A stretch of DNA of 64,000 nt from Candidatus Methylomirabilota bacterium (GTDB taxonomy: Bacteria; Verrucomicrobiota; Verrucomicrobiia; Limisphaerales; UBA11358): NCBI GenBank assembly GCA_035644195.1, contig DASQOZ010000070.1, positions 463 to 64,462 on the forward strand, given 5' to 3'. Positions 4,926 through 58,837 of this stretch are shown here, piece by piece; positions within the stretch are counted from its first letter, which is position 1, and each line of letters begins with the position of its first letter. The position numbers and the translations under genes were made by a program. Under the pieces are notes generated by a model. It made no database searches and was not told where the DNA came from. It worked only from the letters and a program-made list of their open reading frames with translations.

Positions 4926-5330
4926 ATGGACGCGATGCAAAAAAAGAAAATGTGGAAAGTGGCGGCGATACATTTGTTGCTTTCTCTACTTGCGATTTTT
5001 GGCGTTTTTTATTTCTTTTTTTTCTTGGGTGATTTTTTATATCTCCCCGTCACATTCTGGAGTAAGATGTGCATGTGGCTTCAACCTTTTTTCTGCCAAT
5101 TGTTCTTTTTCTTTCTAAAGGCTGATGCGGAAAATCTGGAAATTTCTTTGCTTATACAAATTCCACTGTATCTGTTTTGTATTTTAATTTGGAGCTTTTG
5201 TGTTGGTTGGCTTTATACAAAATTAGTTAGTTTGCTCAACCGTGATTCAATTCTCGGCAGAAAAGTTTTTTCAAATCGTAAATCGCAAATCATAAATCGT
5301 AAATTTCTATGCAAGTCACTTCACTTTTAA
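4926..5330 (+). CDS. Hypothetical small membrane protein (AT-rich)
   Basis: 134-aa ORF that is very hydrophobic and Phe/Leu-rich, with lower GC than its neighbours. Its 3' end runs through a heptamer repeat and overlaps the ATPase start. I recognise no family. Confidence 0.3.
   Translation: MDAMQKKKMWKVAAIHLLLSLLAIFGVFYFFFFLGDFLYLPVTFWSKMCMWLQPFFCQLFFFFLKADAENLEISLLIQIPLYLFCILIWSFCVGWLYTKLVSLLNRDSILGRKVFSNRKSQIINRKFLCKSLHF
5273..5304. repeat. Heptanucleotide tandem repeat (AAATCGT-like, about 4.5 units)
   Basis: aaatcgt aaatcgc aaatcat aaatcgt aaat, ending 5 nt before the ATPase ATG at 5309. Confidence 0.8.
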
Positions 5331-12063: not shown

Positions 12064-12069
12064 TTTCAT

Positions 12070-12126
12070 GGGAGGGTCGCCGTGTCGACGACCCAAATTT
12101 TGGGACGGCGACACGCCGTCCCTCCC
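12070..12126. repeat. GGGAGGG...CCCTCCC palindromic element
   Basis: gggagggtcgccgtgtcgacgaccc aaatttt gggacggcgacacgccgtccctccc. The termini pair, and each arm contains its own hairpin with a tgtc or acac loop. Confidence 0.7.
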
Positions 12127-12173
12127 ATTCACAAGATTGCTTCACGACAAATCCCTGCTAATCTTTTCGTTCC

Positions 12174-13907
12174 GTGACCAAAGGAAAAAAATCTAAAAAT
12201 CGTCCCTTGCGCGTTGGTTTGATTTCACTCGGCTGCGCGAAAAATCTCGTGGACGCCGAGGTCATGCTCGGCTCGCTGATGAAAAGTGGAGTCGAAATCA
12301 CCAACGACGCCGCGCAGGCCGACGCGCTCATCGTCAACACCTGCTCCTTCATTGACTCCGCGCAGGAAGAAAGCGTGGACACGATTCTTGAATCCGTCGA
12401 ACTGCGCGATGCGAACCGGCGCGGCCAGGCCGTCATCGTTTCCGGCTGCCTCTCGCAGCGTTTCCGCGAGGAACTTCCAAAATTATTGCCTGAAGTGGAT
12501 GCGTTCATGGGCATTGACCAGGTCGCGCGAGTCGGCGACATCGTCGGCAAAGCCATTGCCAGCCGTGCGGAAAAAAATGGGAATGAAAAATTAAAAATTA
12601 AAAATTCAAAAACGAAAATTTCCGCGCGCCTGAACGAACTGGAAAAGAACCGCGACCTTTCCGCCCGCGAAAAAGAAGAATCTTTGCGCGGCACGGACAA
12701 ATTTGGCAAAACCAAAACCGTCGTAGCGGCGTCTCGGGAGAGCGCCGCCAATTTATCTTTGGCGGAAGGAACGGCGGCGTTCTCCCGAAACGCCGCTACG
12801 ATCTTCGATGTCACTTCGCGCCCCGTCTTCATTCCCGATTTCGAGACGCCGCGCTTCCGGCTGACGCCGAAACATTTTGCCTATCTGAAGATCGCCGAGG
12901 GTTGCAACCATCCGTGCAGCTTCTGCATCATTCCACGCATGCGCGGCTCGCACCGCAGCCGCACGCAAAAAGACATTGTGGCTGAAGCGAAGGCATTGAT
13001 CGCCGACGGCGTGAAGGAGATCAATTTAATTTCGCAGGACTCGACTTATTACGGATTGGATTTGCGTCCGAACCATTCGCGAGCGATTTCTTCGCCTGAA
13101 AAATTTTCCGCCGCCGCAAAATCGCTCGCCGCCGATGCCACGACCATTTGTTCGCTACTCCGAGAACTGAATTCGATCAAAGGCGATTTCTGGATTCGCC
13201 TGCTCTACACGCATCCGGCGCACTGGACGGACGAATTGATTCAGACAATCGCCGATTGCAAAAAAGTCGCGCGCTACGTTGACATTCCGCTGCAACACAT
13301 CCACGAGAATATGCTCGAACGGATGCGCCGCGAAACATCGCAGCAATACATCGTTGATTTGATTCAGAAAATCCGCGCCGGAATTCCGGGAATTGCGTTA
13401 CGGACGACCTTCATCGTCGGTTTTCCGGGCGAAACGGAAAGCAGTTTTGAAACGCTGCTTGATTTTGTCCGTGAAACGAAATTCGAACGGCTCGGTGTGT
13501 TCACTTATTCGCAGGAAGACGGCACGCTCGCTGGAAAAATGGCCGGACAAATTCCCGACAAGGTCAAACAGAAGCGCCGCGAACTCGTTATGGCCGCGCA
13601 ACACAAGATCGCCCGGCAAGTTTCAGAGAATTTTGTTGGCCGCGAAATCAAAGTCCTCGTCGAAGGCCAGGCGAATGAAAAGCAGCTTCAACAGGCGAAC
13701 GTCAGTTCGTGGGAACACGGCTTGATTCGCGAAGCAGAAACTTCAAAACTTCAAATTCAAAATTATCTCATTGCTCGCGGCGAAGCCGACGCGCCGGACA
13801 TTGACGGTCGCATTTACATTCGCGGCAGATTGCCAATCGGCGAATTTGCCAAAGTCAAAATTATCGGCCACACGGATTACGATTTGATTGCCGAGCCGGT
13901 GGCGTGA
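12174..13907 (+). CDS. rimO: Ribosomal protein S12 methylthiotransferase RimO (with about 100-aa repeat-derived linker insertion)
   Basis: GTG start. MTTase N-domain LRVGLISLGCAKNLVDAEVM, radical-SAM motif EGCNHPCSFCIIP and a C-terminal TRAM-like region. The linker between the domains is far longer than in canonical RimO. Confidence 0.85.
   Translation: MTKGKKSKNRPLRVGLISLGCAKNLVDAEVMLGSLMKSGVEITNDAAQADALIVNTCSFIDSAQEESVDTILESVELRDANRRGQAVIVSGCLSQRFREELPKLLPEVDAFMGIDQVARVGDIVGKAIASRAEKNGNEKLKIKNSKTKISARLNELEKNRDLSAREKEESLRGTDKFGKTKTVVAASRESAANLSLAEGTAAFSRNAATIFDVTSRPVFIPDFETPRFRLTPKHFAYLKIAEGCNHPCSFCIIPRMRGSHRSRTQKDIVAEAKALIADGVKEINLISQDSTYYGLDLRPNHSRAISSPEKFSAAAKSLAADATTICSLLRELNSIKGDFWIRLLYTHPAHWTDELIQTIADCKKVARYVDIPLQHIHENMLERMRRETSQQYIVDLIQKIRAGIPGIALRTTFIVGFPGETESSFETLLDFVRETKFERLGVFTYSQEDGTLAGKMAGQIPDKVKQKRRELVMAAQHKIARQVSENFVGREIKVLVEGQANEKQLQQANVSSWEHGLIREAETSKLQIQNYLIARGEADAPDIDGRIYIRGRLPIGEFAKVKIIGHTDYDLIAEPVA
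12586..12620. repeat. Heptanucleotide tandem repeat (AAAAATT-like, 5 units) inside rimO
   Basis: aaaaatt aaaaatt aaaaatt caaaaac gaaaatt, read in-frame as KLKIKNSKTKI. Confidence 0.8.
12723..12799. repeat. GTAG...CTAC palindromic element (copy E), in-frame inside rimO
   Basis: The left arm gtagcggcgtctcgggagagcgccgcc pairs with the right arm ggcggcgttctcccgaaacgccgctac. Translated as VVAASRESAANLSLAEGTAAFSRNAATI. Confidence 0.75.
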
Positions 13908-13908
13908 T

Positions 13909-13972
13909 GGGAGGGACGGCGTGTCGCCGTCCTTGACTAAATAAAATGGGACGCCGACACGGCGTCCCTCCC
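13909..13972. repeat. GGGAGGG...CCCTCCC palindromic element (likely also rimO terminator)
   Basis: gggagggacggcgtgtcgccgtcc ...loop... gggacgccgacacggcgtccctccc, beginning 2 nt after the rimO stop. Same family as 12070-12126. Confidence 0.7.
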
Positions 13973-14021
13973 AAAGTTTTCTCTTGGTGTTCTTGGTGCC
14001 TTGGTGGTTCAATTCTTGGAA

Positions 14022-14741: not shown

Positions 14742-15727
14742 AAATACCTGAACTTCGTCTGCACAATCGAAATATAGAAAGTATATTTAGCCTTCTTGGT
14801 GAAAAGGAAAATGACATTACTTATAGTTTAGGTTGGGCTTTTTCGAGAAGCCCACACTTTTTGCAATTGTTTTTGAAAAAGATTTTGCCTCCGAATTTGT
14901 ATTTTAATATCGAAGAATTGGAAATTGTTTTGCAAGAGCATAAAGGCGAAGCTGGTATAACAGATATTGAAATTCGTGAGATAAGCGGAACAAATGTCCA
15001 CGTAATTATTGAAGCAAAACGCGGATGGTCATTTCCATCACTTGATCAACTAGAAAAATATGTGCCGCGCTTCCGAAATACGAATAGGGATTTATATTTG
15101 ATTGTAACAATGTCCGAGTGTTCCGAAGAATACGCTAGGGCGAGCGGTTTGCCGACAAAAGTCAACGGAATAGCAGTAAAGCATATTAGTTGGAGCGAAA
15201 TCAGTTCTCTTTGTAATAGTGGCGTCGGAAGTCACGCTGAAAAGCGTCTGATGCGAGAATTAAAAAATTATTTGGCCACGATTGTAAATATGCAAAAGCA
15301 AGATTCAAATTGGGTTTATGTTGTATCTCTTGGAAATCAAGAGTGCGCGCCGGGGTTGACCTTTAAGCAGGTCGTCAATGAAAGAAAGCGTTATTTTCAC
15401 CCATATGGTAGCGGCGAAAGATGGCCCAAAGAACCGCCCAATTATATTGGATTTCGTTACGATGGAATCCTTCAAAGCATCCACCACATCGAGAGTGCGG
15501 AACTTTTTAAGAACTTTCATTTACATTTTCCAGAATATCCAGACGAAATCGAAGATGGAGCGCGTTATCTTTATAAACTCGGACCGGCAATTCGTCCCTT
15601 GCACGAAGTTAAAGCCGGGGCGATAGTTCGTAGCTTGCGGGTTTGGGCGATGCTTGACCTTCTTTTGACTTGCCAAACAATTTCAGAAGCACGAGATAAA
15701 AGTTATAAACGATTGGAGCAAATTTAA
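14738..15727 (+). CDS. Hypothetical protein with PD-(D/E)XK nuclease-like N-terminal domain
   Basis: Its start makes an ATGA overlap with the exonuclease stop. The GC drop is strong: a sampled line is about 32% against about 62% just upstream. The core GITDIEIRE...VHVIIEAKRG fits D-x(n)-ExK. The C-terminal roughly 130 aa are unrecognised. Confidence 0.4.
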   Translation: MKIPELRLHNRNIESIFSLLGEKENDITYSLGWAFSRSPHFLQLFLKKILPPNLYFNIEELEIVLQEHKGEAGITDIEIREISGTNVHVIIEAKRGWSFPSLDQLEKYVPRFRNTNRDLYLIVTMSECSEEYARASGLPTKVNGIAVKHISWSEISSLCNSGVGSHAEKRLMRELKNYLATIVNMQKQDSNWVYVVSLGNQECAPGLTFKQVVNERKRYFHPYGSGERWPKEPPNYIGFRYDGILQSIHHIESAELFKNFHLHFPEYPDEIEDGARYLYKLGPAIRPLHEVKAGAIVRSLRVWAMLDLLLTCQTISEARDKSYKRLEQI

Positions 15728-15735
15728 TTTGATTC

Positions 15736-16500
15736 ATGTCCACCCTCATTTGCTTCGCCCTGAAAGAAGAAGCCGCGCCGTTTCGGAAAATCGCGGCGGG
15801 TATCAGCTTGCGCCGCGACCACCATGTTTCAATTTTGCTCACCGGCATCGGCCGCCAGAACGCCGAAAAATCCCTGCGCGAATTTCTGAATTCTTGTAGG
15901 AGTCGAGGTAACCAGACTCAAATTAAAGAAGAGTTAGAGACTCCTCACGTCGTCTCCTACAAACCGGATTTGGTGCTGACCTGCGGTTTCGCCGGCGGAC
16001 TGAATCCAGAATTGAAACTCGGCGACGTGATTTTTGAAATTTTCCCCAGTAGCAGCCGACGTGAGTCGGCTCAAACTGAAACCGGAAATCAATCAGAGCC
16101 GATTGACATCGGCTGCTACGATAAATTGATTGCCGCCGGCGCAAAGCCCGCAAAAATTTTCTGCGCCGACCGCATCGCCACGACCGTCGCCGAAAAGAAA
16201 AAATTGCGCGACGAAACCGGCGCTGATGCCGTCGAAATGGAATCGGCGGCGATCCACGTCGTCTGCCGCGAACGCGGCATTCCCTGCGCCACCGTCCGCG
16301 TGATCTCCGACACGGCCAATGAAGATTTGCCGCTGGATTTCAACACGCTTTCCAAGCCGGACAAGAATCTGGATTTTGGAAAATTATTCCTGGCCATCGC
16401 CAAATCGCCCGGAAAAATTCCCGCGTTGATGCAGTTGCAGAAGAAAACCAAATTCGCGGCGGAGCAACTGGCGGCGGTTTTGGAGAAAATAATCCGGTAG
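15736..16500 (+). CDS. PNP/UDP-1 family nucleosidase (MTA/SAH nucleosidase or HpnG-like) carrying two in-frame repeat insertions
   Basis: LLTGIGRQNA, CGFAGGLNP and DAVEMESAAI are typical of MtnN/HpnG-type phosphorylases. It lies convergent to the hopanoid-type genes. Confidence 0.6.
   Translation: MSTLICFALKEEAAPFRKIAAGISLRRDHHVSILLTGIGRQNAEKSLREFLNSCRSRGNQTQIKEELETPHVVSYKPDLVLTCGFAGGLNPELKLGDVIFEIFPSSSRRESAQTETGNQSEPIDIGCYDKLIAAGAKPAKIFCADRIATTVAEKKKLRDETGADAVEMESAAIHVVCRERGIPCATVRVISDTANEDLPLDFNTLSKPDKNLDFGKLFLAIAKSPGKIPALMQLQKKTKFAAEQLAAVLEKIIR
15895..15961. repeat. GTAG...CTAC palindromic element (copy A), in-frame in nucleosidase CDS
   Basis: tgtaggagtcgaggtaaccagactc ...aaattaaagaagagtta... 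gagactcctcacgtcgtctcctaca, translated CRSRGNQTQIKEELETPHVVSY. Confidence 0.8.
16049..16119. repeat. GTAG...CTAC palindromic element (copy B), in-frame in nucleosidase CDS
   Basis: gtagcagccgacgtgagtcggctc ...loop... gagccgattgacatcggctgctac, translated SSSRRESAQTETGNQSEPIDIGCY. Confidence 0.8.
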
Positions 16501-16552
16501 GGCCGCGTTGCCGCGCGGTCCAAATTTGGGCGGTGCAGCAGCACCGCCCTAC
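16497..16552. repeat. GTAG...CTAC element (copy F) between convergent genes; probable bidirectional terminator
   Basis: gtagggccgcgttgccgcgcggtcc aaatttg ggcggtgcagcagcaccgccctac. The termini pair and each arm has its own hairpin. The terminal TAG and CTA triplets are the stop codons of both flanking genes. Confidence 0.7.
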
Positions 16553-16974
16553 CGTTGAATCGAATTGGTTTCTGCTGGCGGCGCGGGTTTTTCTTTCGTG
16601 TGTTCGCTGTAGCTGATGAATCCCGCGCCGATGACGATGAGAATCACGCCAACCCAGCGCCACAGCGAAACTTGTTCGTTCAAAAACCACATCGCGGCAA
16701 ACGTGGCGAAGACAAAACTCAATGCGGTCAGCGGCCAGAGAAAACTGATTTCGCTCTCGGACATCAAAATCAGCAGGCAGCCGAAAAACAACGCCTGAAA
16801 AAACATTCCCAGCCAGATGAAATAATTTGTGCCAGCGGCTTTAATGAAACGCGCGACGGCGGCGACACTGTTGGTTTTGGCTTCGCCGATTTGGTTCATG
16901 CCTTTTTTCAAAAACACGATGCCGGTGGATTCGAAAAAAAGTCCGATCAACAAGATGACAATTAATTTGGTCAT
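16549..16974 (-). CDS. Small DMT/EamA-like (ArnE/SMR-like) membrane transporter
   Basis: 141 aa with four hydrophobic helices. The size and pattern match small EamA-domain proteins. Its start overlaps the upstream gene by 4 nt. Confidence 0.5.
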   Translation of the reverse strand: MTKLIVILLIGLFFESTGIVFLKKGMNQIGEAKTNSVAAVARFIKAAGTNYFIWLGMFFQALFFGCLLILMSESEISFLWPLTALSFVFATFAAMWFLNEQVSLWRWVGVILIVIGAGFISYSEHTKEKPAPPAETNSIQR

Positions 16975-17816
16975 AAATCCTGATAGCGAATCAATTCAAC
17001 CCCGAGTTTTTGCACAAGCTCTTTCACGCGCGGGCTGACCAGAGCATCCAACTCATGCTTAAATTCTCCCAGCGACGGATGCGAGTAAAGCTCCGAATCG
17101 CCGTCGGGCAAGTCCGGCAACAATTTCAAAATGTAATCTTCATCCACGCGCGCATTTTGCAAAAGGCCAAAAGTGATTTGCGCGTGGCGGATGTTTTTTC
17201 GCCCAAGCGATTTGCGCGCGCGGTTGGAAAGCCATTCGTAAATCGTCGCGTGGGAAATTTTGTAGAAGAGATGGCCATTGGAAATTTTGCGGCTGCGCGA
17301 AAGGCAATCGCGAGTGAGTCGTAAATAGCGGATGCCAAGCTTGTTCGCGTCTTCCATCAGGATTTTGAAAATGGTTGGATGCAAATGCAAATGCAAATGG
17401 CCGTTGACGTGGTCAAGCGGCAAGCCAGTTGCGTGAAATTTTTCAAATTGCGCATGGATTTCGGCGCGAAGCTGTTCGCGTAGGCTGCGTTTGAAAAAAT
17501 AATCCATTCCGACGCCGACCGGCGAATTGGAAAATTCGCCGCGCGAATTGACGAGGCCGGGAATTTTTCCCGGTAGCAGCGCGGAATGGCCTTGCAGTAA
17601 AGTCAGGTGCAAACCGACGCCGAGTTTTGGATTCTCTTTTGCCAGTTTTGCGGCTTCGTCGAAACCAGATTCATTCACCATCAAACTGGCACTGGTCAAA
17701 ATGCCGTCGCGATGCGCGCAGATGACGGCTTCGTTGACAGAATACGAGAGGCCGAAGTCATCGGCATTGACGATGAGGCGACAAGCAGGTTTCGGATTTG
17801 AAAGGATGGCAGGCAT
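16971..17816 (-). CDS. YdjC/ChbG-family deacetylase (HpnK-like)
   Basis: The internal ATG at 17816 avoids overlap with the upstream gene. LIVNADDFGLSYSVNEAVICAHRDGILTSASLMVN is the YdjC signature. Confidence 0.7.
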   Translation of the reverse strand: MPAILSNPKPACRLIVNADDFGLSYSVNEAVICAHRDGILTSASLMVNESGFDEAAKLAKENPKLGVGLHLTLLQGHSALLPGKIPGLVNSRGEFSNSPVGVGMDYFFKRSLREQLRAEIHAQFEKFHATGLPLDHVNGHLHLHLHPTIFKILMEDANKLGIRYLRLTRDCLSRSRKISNGHLFYKISHATIYEWLSNRARKSLGRKNIRHAQITFGLLQNARVDEDYILKLLPDLPDGDSELYSHPSLGEFKHELDALVSPRVKELVQKLGVELIRYQDL

Positions 17817-32114: not shown

Positions 32115-33794
32115 TCACGAACCCATCATACTTCTCAACGGTAAAAATTCCAACTCCGCTCCCGCTTCCAACTCCGCACAATTCACCGGCACGCGAATCA
32201 GCGCGTTCGCCGCTGCGAAGCAAGTCACGTCGCCGGAACTCGACCATTTCAGCGGATGCAAATTTATTTCGCCGTTCAAAAACTCCAACCGTGCCGGCCA
32301 GAGCGTTTCGCGCGGACACGGCTTGTCGTCCAATTTTGTGGCGAGCCTGCCACGCATAAATTTTGGCGCAATTTCGCCGGTCAGTTTCGCGAGCGCCGTG
32401 GCGACGGCGAAATGAAAACAGACAAAATGCGAGAGCGGGTTGCCCGGCAAACCAAACGCCACGCGCGAACCGTTCACGCCGAAGATGAGCGGCTTGCCAG
32501 GACGCACGTTGACTTGTGAAAAAGCGGTTTCAAAACCGAGCCGTTCCAGCAGCGGACGCGTGAAATCTTTGTCGCCGACACTCGCTCCTCCGGAAATCAA
32601 AATCAAATCCGCCGCCGCGATGCGGTTCAAATCAAGTTGCGCCCACGCCGCCTCAAAATTTTCCGGCAGATGTTTCTGGTCCAAGTCACACGAAAAGTTT
32701 TGCAACAGGCCGCGAATCAAAATCGAATTGCTGTCGCGGATTTGCCCCGGCTCCGGCGTTTGATCAGGCGGAATAATCTCATCGCCCGTCGTGAAGTGTG
32801 CCACGCGCAATCGTGGACTCACCAGCGGCTGCGTGCAGCCCGCCGTCGCCAGCAACGCGAGTTTGCCCGCGTCCAGCCGCACGCCGGATTTCATGAGCGG
32901 CTGTCCAGCCTTCACATCTTCGCCGCGCTTGCGGAGGCTTGATCCACTTTCGAGTTTTGTGATTTTAATTTTGTCGCCGTTGCGCTCGACGTGTTCCTGC
33001 ATTACTACGCGCACACCGTCGCACGGCAACGCCGCGCCCGTCGCCACGCGCACCGCTTCACCGCGCCGGAGCAGGCGCGGTTTCCAATCCGCCGCGTGGA
33101 TCGTGTCCACGATTTGAAAATTGTCGGACGCATCATCGGCCAGAATTGCGTAACCATCGCGCGTGGAGCGGTCATTCGGCGGCAAATCTTCCGGCGCGCA
33201 AACCGTTTCGCGCAGCACGCGGCCAAAAGATTCTTCCAGCGGAACGCGAACCGGCGGCAACGGCTGGCAGCTCGAACTGATTTCCGAAATAGCTTCGTCC
33301 AACGATTTGTAGGAGACGACGTGAGGGGTCTCTGATTTTTTTGAAGTGAGACTCGTCACCTCGTCTCCTACAAAATCAATTGGCAACGCGCGTCGTTTCC
33401 AGATCGGCACGTCGCGTTTGAGGCCATCCATGAATTCGCCGGTCAACGCGATGGCTTCCGCGCGATGCCTGGCGGCGACGCCAAGATAAATTGCCGTTTC
33501 GCCGACGGGAATGATTCCGACGCGATGAATCACTTTGGCGGCGAGACACGGATGCCGCGTGGAAATGTCCTGAATCAGCCGCCGGATTTCGCGCGCGGCC
33601 ATTTCAGGATAGGCTTCATATTCAAGCGCGGAAATTGTTCCGCCATTTTCTTCATCACGGACCAAGCCGCGAAATTCAATCCACGCACCAAGCGCGGTCT
33701 TTGCAGACGGCCACCATTGCGGCGGAGAAATTTTTTCCGCAATCGGTCCTTTCGTGAGTTGAATTTCAATTTCCATGCGACAAAATAATTTCAT
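32115..33794 (-). CDS. MoaE-MoeA fusion protein (molybdopterin synthase catalytic subunit + molybdopterin molybdenumtransferase)
   Basis: The N-terminal roughly 145 aa are MoaE-like (EYEAYPEMA...DVPIWKR). The rest is MoeA-like (SLDEAI...RSTRDGYAI...SGGASVGDKD). The joint is the repeat-encoded DFVGDEVTSLTSKKSETPHVVSYK. Confidence 0.85.
   Translation of the reverse strand: MKLFCRMEIEIQLTKGPIAEKISPPQWWPSAKTALGAWIEFRGLVRDEENGGTISALEYEAYPEMAAREIRRLIQDISTRHPCLAAKVIHRVGIIPVGETAIYLGVAARHRAEAIALTGEFMDGLKRDVPIWKRRALPIDFVGDEVTSLTSKKSETPHVVSYKSLDEAISEISSSCQPLPPVRVPLEESFGRVLRETVCAPEDLPPNDRSTRDGYAILADDASDNFQIVDTIHAADWKPRLLRRGEAVRVATGAALPCDGVRVVMQEHVERNGDKIKITKLESGSSLRKRGEDVKAGQPLMKSGVRLDAGKLALLATAGCTQPLVSPRLRVAHFTTGDEIIPPDQTPEPGQIRDSNSILIRGLLQNFSCDLDQKHLPENFEAAWAQLDLNRIAAADLILISGGASVGDKDFTRPLLERLGFETAFSQVNVRPGKPLIFGVNGSRVAFGLPGNPLSHFVCFHFAVATALAKLTGEIAPKFMRGRLATKLDDKPCPRETLWPARLEFLNGEINLHPLKWSSSGDVTCFAAANALIRVPVNCAELEAGAELEFLPLRSMMGS
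33308..33372. repeat. GTAG...CTAC palindromic element (copy C) at the moaE/moeA joint
   Basis: tgtaggagacgacgtgaggggtctc tgatttttttgaagt gagactcgtcacctcgtctcctaca. The arm sequences are closest to copy A. Confidence 0.8.
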
Positions 33795-44762: not shown

Positions 44763-45632
44763 TCAAGCATGGTTGAATGCGGTTAAATTATTTTTGACGG
44801 CTGGCGGCAAAACGTTTTCCACGGGCGACTGTTCGATTTTTGGCATGACGGTTTTCCGATGCGCGCGGACTTCGAGAAATTCAATCAACTGCTCGCGCAG
44901 TTTGTAATAATCGGGATGCTCCATGACGGCCTTGCGCTCGCGCGGGCGCGGAAACTTCACGTCCATGATTTCGCCGACTGCCGCCGCCGGGCCGTCGGTC
45001 ATGCAAACGATGCGGTCGCTCAAGAACAACGCCTCGTCCACGTCATGCGTGACCATGAGCGCGGTGATTTTATTTTTGCGCCAGAGTTCGATGAGGACTT
45101 GCTGCAATTCGTAACGCGTGAGCGAGTCGAGCATCCCAAACGGCTCGTCGAGCAAAAGCATTTTCGGCTTGAGCGCAAACGCGCGCGCGATGCCGACGCG
45201 CTGCTTCATGCCCTGCGAAAGTTCGGCGGGCTTTTTATGCATCGCATCGCCGAGGCCGACGACGGTGAGATAGTATTCGACGATTTCGCGCCGCTCCTGT
45301 TTGCTTGCCGTGAAAAAGACTTGCTCGACGCCGAGCAGCACGTTTTCGTAGGCCGTCATCCACGGCAGCAGCGAAGGCGATTGGAAAACCACGCCGCGAT
45401 CCGGTCCCGCGCCGGAAAGCTCACGCCCGGCCAGAATGATTCCGCCGTCGGAAATTTCATTCAATCCGGCCAGCATCGAAAGCACCGTGGATTTTCCGCA
45501 GCCGGAATGCCCGATGAGCGTGACAAATTCCCCTTTCTGGATGTTCAGGTTGAAATCCTTGACGATCACCGCGTCGCCCTTTGGCGTCGGATAAACCTTC
45601 GCAAGGTTCGAGAGTTCGACGTAATTGCTCAC
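44763..45632 (-). CDS. nrtD: Nitrate/sulfonate/bicarbonate-type ABC ATP-binding protein (NrtD-like)
   Basis: Walker [10 protein letters not shown], signature LSQGMKQR and Walker B LLLDEPFG. Confidence 0.8.
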
Positions 45633-46534
45633 GAGTTGACCTCCACGGATTCTTCCTTCATTTCATTTTTGCGAATTGGCGTCTTGCGCCAGCCCGTCAT
45701 GTTGCGCGGGATGTTCAAATCTTCCGGCTCGATGTCCGGCAAAATCAATTTGCGCGTGATGGCCGTGTGCCGCTCCTGCTTCGAGCCGAGCATGAATTCC
45801 ACGATTTCGCGGCGCAGTTGCTTGAAATGCGGGTCGTGGTTGATGGATTTGCGGTCGCGCGGACGCGGAATCTCAACGGTGAAGCTCGACCCCAGCGTTG
45901 CGCCCGGCCCGGCGGTCAGCGGAATGATCCGGTCTGCAAGATAAATTCCCTCGTCAGGATCGTTCGTGATCATCACGACGGTTTTTTTGTCGTCGGACCA
46001 AATGCGGGAAACTTCGTCCTGCAACGTCGCGCGCGTGAGCGCATCGAGCGCGGAAAGCGGCTCGTCGAGCAATAAAATTTGCGGATCCATCGCCAGCGCG
46101 CGCGCGACGGAAACGCGCTGCCTCATGCCGCCGGAAAGTTCGCCCGGCTTTTTATCGCGCGCGGGCGTGAGATTCACCATCGCGATGTATTTCTCGACGT
46201 GCGCTTTTCGTTTGTCGTCCGACCAATTGGGATTCACAGCTTCGACGGCGAGCAAAATATTTTCAAATACTGTCAGCCACGGTAGCAGCGAATAATTTTG
46301 AAAAACAATGCCGCGATCCGGTCCCGGCTGCGTGATCTCCAAATCGTTCAACATCAGCGAACCGTTGCTGGGCTTGAGCAAACCCGCGATGAGCGAGATG
46401 AGCGTCGTCTTGCCCGCGCCGGAAAAACCGACGATGGCGACGAACTCACCTTTTTCGACGGACAGGTTGATGTCTTTCAACACCGGCGAGCCGCCGAAAT
46501 TTTTCGAGATGTTTTTGAGTTCGAGATAAGCCAC
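45629..46534 (-). CDS. nrtC: Nitrate/sulfonate/bicarbonate-type ABC ATP-binding protein (NrtC-like, no NrtA-like C-domain)
   Basis: A GTG start at 46534, 6 nt after the nrtB stop, gives (M)[14 protein letters not shown]. Walker [10 protein letters not shown] and signature LSGGMRQR. Confidence 0.75.
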
Positions 46535-52460: not shown

Positions 52461-52465
52461 CACCC

Positions 52466-52520
52466 AAGCCGTTCTTGCTTTCCGCGCCAGACCAAGCCAT
52501 TTTTTCAAGCCCGCACAGCG
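52466..52520. repeat. 55-bp direct repeat, copy 1 (flanks MazF TA cassette)
   Basis: aagccgttcttgctttccgcgccagaccaagccattttttcaagcccgcacagcg. It is 53/55 identical to 53314-53368. Confidence 0.85.
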
Positions 52521-52531
52521 TTTTATAAAAT

Positions 52532-52603
52532 TGTAGCAGCGGACGTCAGTCCGCTCTGATTTATCTTAAAAAAGAAATGAGCCGGCTCACGTCGGCTGCT
52601 ACA
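52532..52603. repeat. GTAG...CTAC palindromic element (copy D), intergenic
   Basis: tgtagcagcggacgtcagtccgctc ...tgatttatcttaaaaaagaaat... gagccggctcacgtcggctgctaca. Confidence 0.8.
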
Positions 52604-52645: not shown

Positions 52646-52945
52646 ATGAAAATTGCCGGTCGTGCCCGTTCCCGAAAAACGAAAGTCAATTTGCGCTCGC
52701 AACTGTTCACGTTGAGCAATGCCAAAACGTATTTAGGCCGCCTGATGGAAAAAGCCGGTCGCGGCGAGACGGTTTATATTGTTCGCGGCCATCGCCGGTT
52801 CGTTTTGCAGGAAGTTCCAGAAATTGAACCCATTCCTGTTCGTCCGGCGGGATATTTTGCCAACGCTTACAGCAAGGCGGAAATTCAGGAAGAAAATCGG
52901 CTCGCCAAATCTTCGGTGATTCGCGCGCCCAAAGACCTTGAATAA
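52646..52945 (+). CDS. Type II antitoxin (Phd/YefM-like or AbrB-like partner of MazF)
   Basis: 99 aa with FTLSNAKTYLGRLMEKAGRGETVYIVRGHRRFVLQEV. It lies 8 nt upstream of the toxin gene. Confidence 0.55.
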   Translation: MKIAGRARSRKTKVNLRSQLFTLSNAKTYLGRLMEKAGRGETVYIVRGHRRFVLQEVPEIEPIPVRPAGYFANAYSKAEIQEENRLAKSSVIRAPKDLE

Positions 52946-52953
52946 AGGACGCG

Positions 52954-53292
52954 ATGAAGCAATGGGATATTTTCATGTTTCCGTTCAGCAAGGAGCGGCG
53001 GCATCCGGCTGTCATCATTTCCAACGACGAAACCTGCCAGAATCCCGACGTTGAAGAAGTGAACGCCCTGCTTTGCACGTCGGCCAAAGTGAATCGCGAG
53101 CCAAAAACCACCGAAGAAGTTTTGGACGAAGCGGACGGGCTGGATTGGAAAACAATGGTGCGTTGTGATAAAATCCATTTGCTGCCGAAGGAACGATTTG
53201 ATGACCAAAAGGGAAACGTCACCGACGAACGGCGATATTTAATTGCCCGCAAAATGATAGAAACTTTAAGGCTGCCGATTCATCGCAGGTGA
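52954..53292 (+). CDS. Type II toxin, MazF/PemK family
   Basis: WDIFMFPF...RHPAVIISND...ALLCTSAKV...MVRCDKIHLLPKERF matches the PemK fold pattern. Confidence 0.7.
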   Translation: MKQWDIFMFPFSKERRHPAVIISNDETCQNPDVEEVNALLCTSAKVNREPKTTEEVLDEADGLDWKTMVRCDKIHLLPKERFDDQKGNVTDERRYLIARKMIETLRLPIHRR

Positions 53293-53313
53293 CTTTAACC
53301 GAATCGTCATCCG

Positions 53314-53368
53314 AAGCCGTTCTTGCTTTCCGCGCCAGACCAAGCCATCTTTTCAAGCCCGCAAAGCG
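53314..53368. repeat. 55-bp direct repeat, copy 2
   Basis: aagccgttcttgctttccgcgccagaccaagccatcttttcaagcccgcaaagcg, ending 12 nt before the ATG at 53381. Confidence 0.85.
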
Positions 53369-57313: not shown

Positions 57314-58837
57314 TCACTCCAAAATTTGCCGTAGCAAAATTTGAAAAACTTCCGTTGATTCAATTTCTTTCACGCCCAAAAATTCTGGCCTTTCACTGAT
57401 GATGACCGGCCAATCGCGTTTGTCCGCCGGACGCCGTCCGTGCGAACCTTTCACCAGCGTCGCGTCGAGCGGAATCACGTCCATCAACATCCGCAGGCCG
57501 AGTTTCTTTTGCAGCAGCCGCCACGCGATTTTTAATTTCGGCAGCGGAATCTTCGGGTCGAGAAACAATTCCACCGGGTCGTAGCCGGGTTTGCGATGGA
57601 TGTCCACCGTCCGCGCAAAATCCGGCGCGCGCGCGTCGTCGAGCCAGTAATAATAAGTGAACCACGCGTTCTCCGGCGCGACGGCGATTAAATCTCCGGC
57701 GCGCGGATGGCCAATGCCCGCTTCGGCCTTTTCCTTTGCACCGAGGACGGTCACGTCCACCTCGACCTGTTTCTCCAGCACGTCGCGCACTTTCGATTCG
57801 AGCGAGCGGTCGTTCAAATAAATGTGCGCGACTTGATGATCGGCCACGGCAAAAACTTTGCTCGCGCCCGCGTCGAGAATTTCCATGCCGAGTTCGTCTT
57901 TGATTGCAAGCCAGCCTTTTTGCCGGAACAAACGGTTCAAATGAATCGGCGCGTCCACGTTCGTGATGCCGTATTCGGAAAGCAAAACGATTTTCACGCC
58001 GCGCGCGCTGAAATATTTGATGAGGTCGCCGACGATAGAATCAATCGCCTGCAAATCGGGAATGATTTTGGGATTGGTGGAACAAGCGTCCCGCTTGTTG
58101 AATTCGGCGTCTCGCCGAATTTTATTTCCGGAAGAATTTTCCGGCGGGACGCCGGAATGAACAGGCGAGACGCCTGTGCCACCCACATAAACGCCATGCC
58201 GCTGCAAATTGTAATCCAAATGCGGCAAATAAATCAGGTTCAGCGGCGGCGCGTATTTATTTTCAATCCACTTCGCCGATTCCGCAATCCAGCGCGTCGC
58301 GCAATCAGCAGAGCCTTGCAACGTTTTGATTCCCGCCGCTGGTCCCCAAAATCCGAAGAACGGAAATTCGCCCAAATCTTTTTTGATTTCTTCGCGGATG
58401 GAATATGGCCATGAATAAATGTCGAAAACTTTTCCGCCGTCGGCCTTGTAAATCGGGCGCGGCGTGATGGAATAATCCGCGCTCGAATACATGTTGAACC
58501 ACCAAAACACATTTGCGATTGATGATTTACGATTTACGATTTCAGATTGTTTTCGGAGTGCGTCCCAGATTTTTTTGCCGTGAACGATGTGATTCGATTG
58601 TTTCCAAAATTGAACTTCAGACAATTCACGATTATGCCAGCCGTTGCCGACGATGCCATGGTCGCGCGGTAATTTGCCGGTGAGATAATTCGATTGTGCC
58701 GTGCAGGTGACGGCGGGAAACGCGGGCGCGATGTGCGCGAGCGCGCCGCGTTTACGAAATTCCGCGATGCGTGGCGTATGTTCGCCGATGAGCGCTTCGG
58801 TGAGGCCGACAACGTTGATGACCGCGACACGATTCAT
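57314..58837 (-). CDS. Alkaline-phosphatase-superfamily nucleotide pyrophosphatase/phosphodiesterase (EboF-like)
   Basis: N-terminus VINVVGLT...AFPAVTCTAQSNYLTGKLPRDHGIVGNGW (metal/Thr nucleophile region). An ATGA overlap joins it to the upstream DHQS-like gene. It carries two repeat-derived in-frame inserts. Confidence 0.7.
   Translation of the reverse strand: MNRVAVINVVGLTEALIGEHTPRIAEFRKRGALAHIAPAFPAVTCTAQSNYLTGKLPRDHGIVGNGWHNRELSEVQFWKQSNHIVHGKKIWDALRKQSEIVNRKSSIANVFWWFNMYSSADYSITPRPIYKADGGKVFDIYSWPYSIREEIKKDLGEFPFFGFWGPAAGIKTLQGSADCATRWIAESAKWIENKYAPPLNLIYLPHLDYNLQRHGVYVGGTGVSPVHSGVPPENSSGNKIRRDAEFNKRDACSTNPKIIPDLQAIDSIVGDLIKYFSARGVKIVLLSEYGITNVDAPIHLNRLFRQKGWLAIKDELGMEILDAGASKVFAVADHQVAHIYLNDRSLESKVRDVLEKQVEVDVTVLGAKEKAEAGIGHPRAGDLIAVAPENAWFTYYYWLDDARAPDFARTVDIHRKPGYDPVELFLDPKIPLPKLKIAWRLLQKKLGLRMLMDVIPLDATLVKGSHGRRPADKRDWPVIISERPEFLGVKEIESTEVFQILLRQILE
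58081..58177. repeat. Composite of four consecutive short hairpins, in-frame inside phosphodiesterase CDS
   Basis: aacaagcgtcccgcttgtt, aattcggcgtctcgccgaatt, ttccggcgggacgccggaa and acaggcgagacgcctgt. The stems are 7-8 bp and the loop cores GTCCC/GGGAC and GTCTC/GAGAC are mutual reverse complements. Confidence 0.75.
58517..58551. repeat. Heptanucleotide tandem repeat (GATTTAC-like x5 = reverse complement of the 5273 unit) inside CDS
   Basis: gattgat gatttac gatttac gatttca gattgtt, read on the minus strand as QSEIVNRKSSI. Confidence 0.75.

Follow-up and report, generated by a model that had tools for sequence, protein, structure and literature searches.

Do the two ends of one palindromic repeat serve as the stop codons of both genes that converge on it and, if so, what kind of element is it and how did it come to lie there? 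This question is raised by a 56-nt element, here called F, in a 64,000-nt stretch of contig DASQOZ010000070.1 (assembly GCA_035644195.1, positions 463 to 64,462 of the forward strand). We refer to this whole stretch as the window and count coordinates from its first letter; relatives and other contigs are given by their L numbers. As originally predicted, F lies exactly between a plus-strand gene for an HpnG-like nucleosidase and a minus-strand gene for a small EamA-type transporter, and its two termini coincide with the stop codons of the two genes at the positions proposed (Table 1). The original prediction also held that F belonged to a repeat family, that it folded by terminal pairing plus two internal hairpins, that this shape fitted a bidirectional terminator, and that its insertion had remodelled both 3' ends.

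F is a heterodimer of GTAG-tagged repetitive extragenic palindromic (REP) units, from a family associated with RayT transposases, and it supplies both stop codons. Its sequence at 16497-16552 is GTAG GGCCGCG TTGC CGCGCGG TCC AAATTT GG GCGGTGC AGCA GCACCGCC CTAC, which divides into the halves GTAG-GGCCGCGTTGCCGCGCGGTCC and GGGCGGTGCAGCAGCACCGCC-CTAC with AAATTT between them. In both units the GTAG tag adjoins an imperfect palindrome with a 9-bp stem and a 4-nt loop, and the units are paired in inverted, head-to-head (HH) orientation with their tags outward and a 6-nt spacer, as in a REPIN. We use the term heterodimer because the stems of the two halves differ. The tag, GGTAGGGC, is invariant in nine copies at this junction and in at least 131 copies elsewhere. 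As plus-strand RNA, F is predicted to form two independent 9-bp hairpins (16500-16521 and 16528-16549) with a folding energy of -37.8 kcal/mol (z = -5.7), and the minus-strand RNA yields -32.6 kcal/mol (z = -3.8). The two internal hairpins of the original prediction were thus recovered, whereas its terminal pairing was found only in an alternative long-hairpin fold, the terminal GTA and TAC being unpaired in the minimum-energy structure. Among the nine F copies, which come from diverged genomes, 92% of the cells are paired, as compared to 33-56% when the partners are slid, and there are two compensatory pairs and several G-U pairs. In the left unit alone, 94% of the cells are paired across the nine copies, with one compensatory change from C-G to A-U. 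The description of the element as "copy F" did not hold: F differs in sequence from the other GTAG...CTAC dimers of the window and has only the architecture and the GTAG tag in common with them.

That F is a member of a repeat family was confirmed by the dispersal of its right unit. The right-unit pattern GTAGGGCGGYGCTGCTGCRCCGCC has at least 131 exact copies on at least 120 metagenome contigs, at many unrelated loci, and nearly all of the copies listed are part of outward-GTAG dimers with diverse partner units. These partners have GTAGGGC...GCTGCYGC...GCCC in common, and their stems are different but self-complementary; the family unit has the form GTAGGGC + N4-5 + GCTGCYGC + N4-5 + GCCC. Taking the explanation as a whole, we regard it as very probable that F is a non-autonomous REP doublet, consisting of two different GTAGGGC-tagged stem-loops in inverted arrangement with the tags outside.

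Three of the contigs listed with the right unit carry homologs of Escherichia coli RayT beside dimers (phmmer E = 1e-8 to 1e-6). The homolog is located between dimer arrays in L141 and L186 and beside dimers in L108. The L141 arrays are made of GTAGGGCGGCGC.../GTAGGGACGCGC... dimers, which correspond to both units of the element variant present at the nucleosidase junction in L037 and L085. All three homologs possess an HLH (HUH-type) motif and a YV.ENPV tyrosine motif, and their sole NCBIfam match is REP_Tyr_transpos (E = 1e-16 to 1e-20). Judging from these sequences, the F family on related DNA shows the features by which REP/RAYT families are recognized. An IS200-like Y1 transposase, encoded directly upstream of the nucleosidase gene in several relatives, was considered as a mobilizer of F and rejected, as it is flanked by other repeats and its best match is IS200 rather than RayT. 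A tblastn search with this IS200-like protein against the REP-selected contigs returned nothing relevant, and the E. coli RayT query was needed. No DDE transposase was associated with the dimers at the loci examined.

A scan by nucleosidase alignment gave 80 loci from metagenome-assembled genomes (MAGs) of Limisphaerales/Verrucomicrobiia which, together with the window, provided 81 junctions for comparison. In 28 of these there is no element, and the nucleosidase and transporter genes overlap tail-to-tail, by exactly 14 nt in 24 of the 28 (...AAAATCACTTTTCCGTGACC...); in this overlap form, the nucleosidase ends in KI(I/T)FP and the transporter in PVTEK. A GTAG REP dimer is present at the gene end in 23 junctions, the window included, and in all 23 the nucleosidase stop is the TAG of the REP. 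By comparison, only 6 of the 58 junctions lacking a REP at the gene end use TAG, and the nucleosidase stops of REP-free orthologs are mostly TGA or TAA. We therefore conclude that the TAGs come with the repeats. The REP-bearing junctions, in which at least three unrelated dimer types are represented, comprise 10 of the F or "Gac" kind, counting the single-hairpin form GTAGGACAGGCGTCGCGCCTGTCCTAC in L008, 12 with an unrelated dimer of ~130 nt (GTAGCAGCCGAGGTGACGAGGCTC...), and L047. The transporter stop is the CTA of the REP in all seven F/Gac loci in which the gene was found, and also in L085-87, as opposed to just 1 of the 12 large-dimer loci. In L019 and L064, a different REP dimer lies 3-5 nt past a TGA stop and does not supply it. 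At least four unrelated REP types occupy the nucleosidase/EamA junction in different lineages, namely F, the single-hairpin GTAGGACAGGCG, the ~130-nt GTAGCAGCCGAGG, and GTAGGGCTGG.

Comparison of the C-termini with orthologs qualified the proposal that insertion had remodelled both 3' ends. Since the two genes overlap in 28 REP-free relatives, the insertion had to re-create their ends; the proteins themselves are almost unaltered, so that the proposal is weakly supported. Beyond a conserved FAA motif, the nucleosidase of the overlap form continues for 13 residues; every F/Gac locus has 12 and every large-dimer locus 11, within or at the edge of the 11-15 residues of REP-free orthologs. The nucleosidase of the window is one residue shorter than this overlap form, which is the commonest among orthologs. 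The transporter tail of the window, ...EKPAPPAETNSIQR (NSIQR followed by the stop), aligns codon for codon with those of the REP-free loci L059 (...PANSVQK) and L036 (...NSTQK), ending at the same position, where both have TAA. In the underlying DNA, CTA-CCG-TTG-AAT-CGA-ATT of the window is matched by TTA-CTT-CTG-GAC-CGA-ATT of L059. On these alignments, remodelling of the proteins appears to be negligible, being limited to the identity of the stop codon and at most one or two residues.

To what extent GTAG elements overlap stop codons elsewhere, a check that had been proposed for the window's own genome, was assessed with the metagenome copies. The TAG of the GTAG tag ends an open reading frame (ORF) of at least 100 codons in 11 of the 131 copies listed (8%), and this is the commonest single stop position. 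A further comparison is provided by 43 ORFs that stop within 90 nt upstream of listed copies, at many different offsets with a maximum of three at any one. Stop supply by this REP family is thus a recurrent outcome, yet a minority one, involving about one in five REP ends just 3' of a long ORF, and supply of both stops at once is correspondingly rarer.

How would such an element have come to occupy this site? F would have arrived by RayT-mediated insertion. RayT-type (IS200/IS605-like, HUH/Y1) transposases carry the family at the flanks of their own genes and presumably mobilize it. The site occupied by F is the tail-to-tail nucleosidase/EamA junction, where the genes overlap by 14 nt in many relatives. 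There is a TAG in each GTAG tag, so that ribosomes reaching the element in the appropriate frame, from whichever side, would stop at its first codon. This would explain why the insertion, in common with the other REP dimers found at this junction, is tolerated and both proteins are still essentially full length. A more far-reaching suggestion, which we offer tentatively and consider rather unlikely, is that REP doublets of this kind are "self-terminating", the outward TAG tags being an adaptation, or a RayT target preference, for colonizing the extreme 3' ends of genes, including overlapping tails. Each insertion would then uncouple two genes and give each its own stop and a hairpin 3' end. 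The presence of at least four unrelated REP types at this one junction is more in keeping with targeted insertion or positive selection than with toleration alone.

Several observations weigh against RayT-mediated acquisition of F as the full account of this locus. The window contains only one dimer of the F type, together with five GTAG dimers of other subfamilies, and no RayT gene was found in its 64 kb. The arrays surrounding RayT homologs (REPtrons) sit on unassigned metagenome contigs and not on the contig of the window, and the homologs score 60-71 bits, below the 80-bit NCBIfam equivalog cut-off. The genes flanking F in the window are nearer to those of REP-free loci than to those of other F-bearing loci; the 3' DNA of the nucleosidase gene, for instance, is 88% identical to that of L004 as compared to 76-81% for F-bearing loci. 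A covariation test on the F hairpins was not significant with nine sequences. Finally, the likeliest function at the RNA level, in which F would protect both mRNA 3' ends and partially insulate convergent transcription, is suggested by analogy.

The history of F at the junction could accordingly have taken more than one course. Besides the window, copies of F are found in L081, whose nucleosidase is 91% identical, and in L085-87, L037, L049, L056, L062, L066 and L070 (63-70%), while L082-84 (81%) retain a truncated remnant. For L004, L006 and L003, in which the genes overlap and no REP is present, the corresponding figure is 76-79%. The REP is better conserved than the sequences on either side of it, with 86-88% identity against 76-79%, and against 67-68% for L049-type loci. 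F may have been inherited in the window, re-inserted there or acquired by recombination. A neighbor-joining tree of the nucleosidase (209 columns) resolves the branches too poorly to tell a single gain of F from repeated gains, nor is it strong enough to choose among recombination, loss, and repeated insertion by members of a conserved REP population. Simple excision of F would not restore the overlap sequence. Alignments of the flanks are ambiguous as to the exact insertion boundaries and a possible target duplication: the CG/CG beside the tags may represent either an inverted repeat or a direct one.

The match between stop codons and element termini might be a coincidence, the genes having already ended in TAG and the repeat merely lying between them. 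Four REP-free overlap loci (L002, L003, L069 and L076) do have (C/A/G)GTAG at the end of the nucleosidase gene and no element, and the shared end position of the transporter in L059 and L036 points the same way. However, those two loci use TAA, both TAGs of F are inside a conserved tag that is identical at more than 130 unrelated sites, and the contrast in TAG usage between junctions with and without a REP largely refutes this explanation, to which we attach very little probability. About equally improbable is that F is an IS630/Tc1-type miniature inverted-repeat transposable element (MITE), similar to the Correia elements of Neisseria, that inserts at TA with duplication, so that TAG would represent the duplicated TA plus the first G of the element. 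Termini of the form G-TA-G...C-TA-C, inverted-repeat arms of ~35 nt that are 80% complementary, and the TA contained in stop codons would all be expected of such an element. In contrast, a related dimer in loop 1 of the nucleosidase has an empty site, AATTC/ACCAGA, with neither GTAG nor TA, and the inserted DNA holds the whole GTAG...CTAC; there is no TA duplication in this comparison of filled and empty sites across diverged orthologs, in which boundaries are accurate to ~2 nt. Moreover, a full GTAG beside a stem-loop is the signature of RAYT-associated REPs, and it is RayT homologs that the same units flank, with no DDE transposase at the examined loci.

A more serious competitor, though one that we still think doubtful, is that F evolved at the junction, or was recruited to it, specifically as a bidirectional intrinsic terminator, the stop overlap being a side effect of gene compaction. 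In favor of this, a pair of very stable, GC-rich hairpins is positioned exactly between convergent genes, the element and its structure have been kept across diverged genomes, and REPs have been proposed to attenuate transcription (PMC3733652). Nevertheless, no U-tract follows the hairpins on either strand: the sole candidate is the AAAUUU of the spacer, and the tails are AAAUUUGG or coding. A consensus terminator scan of 15700-17100 did not include F among its 6 terminator-like matches, and a search of Rfam 15 with 15600-17100 gave only sub-threshold chance matches. The units are also present at over 120 unrelated loci and on the flanks of RayT genes, which indicates a mobile repeat rather than an invention specific to this locus, and many relatives have no element at all, their genes overlapping. 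The proposal that the shape of F fits a bidirectional terminator is therefore left unsupported by the U-tract and terminator searches. Under the preferred interpretation of F as a REP doublet, the stable hairpins, which start at the stop codon on both mRNAs, would probably act, like REPs in other genomes, as a barrier to 3' exonucleases or as a partial block to transcription between the convergent genes. By analogy with other REPs, translation termination may be damped, since the stems begin at the stop codon.

Stop supply by GTAG REPs has been described before, and the present findings leave the current understanding of REPs unchanged. Di Nocera, De Gregorio & Rocco (2013, BMC Genomics 14:522, PMC3733652) described TAG stops as often being supplied by the termini of GTAG REPs, and also reported that REPs between convergent genes lie <20 bp from both ORFs, that HH heterodimers exist, and that REPs are abundant in the verrucomicrobium Opitutus terrae, which has the most intragenic GTAG REPs. 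F agrees with those elements in having GTAG next to a 6-9 bp stem, inverted units with GTAG outside and differing stems, a location between convergent ORFs <20 bp from both, and termini that serve as TAG stops; frequent in-frame intragenic copies in a verrucomicrobium are likewise common to O. terrae and the window. It differs in that both termini are used as stops at once, in that relatives with overlapping genes are available for comparison at its junction, and in its host clade, Limisphaerales MAGs; the likeness is one of architecture. With REPINs and RAYTs (Bertels & Rainey 2011, PMC3116915; Nunvar et al. 2010, PMC2817692; REP/BIME of E. coli, where RayT = YafM), the F family shares an inverted REP doublet as the unit, a RayT homolog gene flanked by the same doublets (L141, L108, L186) and a repeat more conserved than its flanks. 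Classical REPINs, however, are homodimers that form one long hairpin, whereas F is a heterodimer with two separate hairpins, and its linkage to RayT is on other contigs only, through homologs below the equivalog cut-off. In E. coli, according to the summary in PMC12306157 of Liang, Rudd & Deutscher (2015), REPs <16 nt from a stop lower translation. The stem-loop in those cases is <=15 nt from the stop, which normally lies upstream of the REP, while in F the distance is 0 nt on both strands and the stop is inside the REP tag; going by that summary, an effect in the host of F may be supposed by analogy. Rickettsia palindromic elements (RPEs) and CGTC-tagged REPs resemble the four intragenic dimers of the window as palindromes carried in frame in functional genes. 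Unlike F, they have the tag CGTC rather than GTAG and no known transposase association, and they belong to a different repeat superfamily.

The junction illustrates clearly, by comparison among relatives, how a selfish palindromic repeat may establish itself harmlessly in a very compact genome by bringing its own stop codons, with an element-free state (the 14-nt overlap) preserved beside several independently colonized states. It also brings to light a previously uncharacterized REP family of soil and peat Limisphaerales-like bacteria that is linked to RayT-type transposases. The toleration of REP dimers inside enzymes and as a MoaE-MoeA linker needs to be taken into account when genes are called, and protein families aligned, from such MAGs. 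Added interest, of a modest kind, comes from the contrast of overlapping genes with repeated REP colonization, from in-frame REPs in enzyme loops and from a linker encoded by a REP.

Table 1. Positions of element F, its flanking genes, further GTAG REP dimers and transposase genes (window coordinates, or those of the contig named)
Feature	Position	Strand	Remarks
GTAG-tagged REP head-to-head heterodimer (REPIN-like), F	16497..16552	.	56 nt, GTAG tags outward; from sequence and fold
Left REP unit, GTAG + 9-bp hairpin	16497..16521	+	Two G-U pairs as plus-strand RNA; loop UGCC
AAATTT spacer between hairpins	16522..16527	.	Missing from the L037/L085 variant
Right REP unit GTAGGGCGGTGCTGCTGCACCGCC	16528..16552	-	The dispersed, RayT-associated unit
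Nucleosidase TAG stop	16498..16500	+	Within left GTAG tag
EamA transporter TAG stop	16549..16551	-	CTA on plus strand; within right CTAC tag
HpnG-like nucleoside phosphorylase/nucleosidase gene	15736..16500	+	254 aa, Pfam PNP_UDP_1; carries two in-frame REP dimers
Small EamA/DMT-type membrane protein gene	16549..16974	-	141 aa, Pfam EamA
In-frame GTAG REP dimer, nucleosidase loop 1	15896..15960	+	Encodes ..CRSRGNQTQIKEELETPHVVSY..; empty-site orthologs ATNSPE (18 nt vs 81 nt)
In-frame GTAG REP dimer, nucleosidase loop 2	16049..16119	+	Encodes ..SSSRRESAQTETGNQSEPIDIGCY..; empty-site orthologs TSDETLRA
In-frame GTAG REP dimer, MiaB/RimO-type methylthiotransferase gene	12723..12799	+	77 nt; ORF 12174-13907
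In-frame GTAG REP dimer, linker of MoaE-MoeA fused ORF	33309..33371	-	63 nt; ORF 32115-33794, 559 aa
Intergenic GTAG REP dimer between convergent ORFs	52533..52602	.	Touches neither stop
RayT homolog ORFs	L141 671-1285; L108 941-1516; L186 2098-2610		GTAGGGCGG.../GTAGGGACGCG... dimers at flanks
REPtrons, arrays of GTAGGGC-tagged HH dimers around RayT-like genes	L141 544-1383; L108 919-1688; L186 1801-2652		Peat and soil metagenome contigs
IS200-like Y1 transposase gene directly upstream of nucleosidase	L082 2444-2896; L083 211-663; L007 9444-9893; L026 1-132		AAGTCCCGNNGGGACGACAGAA inverted repeats and CCCAGCCATAAATGGCTGGG hairpins around; no GTAG REPs

A public protein, P0001, is identical to the nucleosidase over 254 aa. 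Further genes along the minus strand encode YdjC-like and squalene/phytoene-synthase-like proteins, and the YdjC-like and EamA genes overlap by 4 nt in the window. We take these neighbors to point to a hopanoid (hpn) cluster, and the nucleosidase to be an HpnG-like enzyme. Another GTAG REP dimer (GTAGCGGCGGTCTGTGACCGTCGC...GCGCCGCTAC) is present in L029 (11382-11438), L037 (11208-11264), L048 (11269-11325) and L060 (11123-11179), a few hundred nt 3' of the nucleosidase stop, where the YdjC-like and EamA genes meet. Its outward TAG closes a long minus-strand ORF of 291-334 codons, which would fit the YdjC-like gene. The source MAG carries the label "Methylomirabilota bacterium", but Verrucomicrobiia/Limisphaerales account for all of the close homologs and syntenic loci, which suggests that the contig is mis-binned or mislabelled.

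Four of the six dimers in the window are intragenic and in frame, and F has its place at the 3' ends of convergent genes. The dimer in the MiaB/RimO-type gene falls within an unusually long linker from UPF0004 to Radical_SAM, and L025, L030, L079 and L080 have the same insert. The dimer in the MoaE-MoeA ORF encodes a 21-residue linker (FVGDEVTSLTSKKSETPHVVSY) that joins the MoaE domain to the MoeA module, which suggests that read-through of a REP fused what had been two neighboring molybdopterin genes. Other means of finding dimers were less useful. A strict search for GTAG...CTAC inverted repeats (<=2 mismatches per arm) missed F, its two units being different, and an all-tetramer control was uninformative, as GC-rich palindromes dominate. 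A scan for GTAG plus a hairpin at -9 kcal/mol returned 278 units against 127 in shuffled sequence and was too noisy, so inverted doublets were used instead; their classification by ORF was blurred by long spurious antisense ORFs.

In other lineages, loops 1 and 2 of the nucleosidase hold unrelated palindromic repeat families (GGTGGGGCGAGCG..., TGGGGAGCGC..., GGAGGGGCGAG...) as well as short tandem arrays whose units measure 7-8 nt, for example (TCGGAAA)n and (CTCGGAA)n. Runs of the heptamer AAATCGT/ACGATTT (TAAATCG repeats) occur in the window at 5273-5304 and 58511-58542, and TAAATCG repeats are also found in the spacers of ~130-nt REP dimers in L022, L027, L028 and others. A second palindromic doublet family (TGGGAGGG-ACGGCGTGTCGCCGT-CC ... 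CCCTCCCA) brackets the MiaB-like gene at 12068-12128 and 13907-13973, the latter doublet beginning on the A of the gene's TGA stop. A 58-nt direct repeat (52463-52520 and 53311-53368; 95% identical, 848 nt apart) brackets a small minus-strand ORF at 52707-53252 together with the intergenic dimer. The direct repeats at 45115-45409 and 46032-46326, spaced by 917 nt and 76-77% identical, reflect two tandem paralogous genes on the minus strand.

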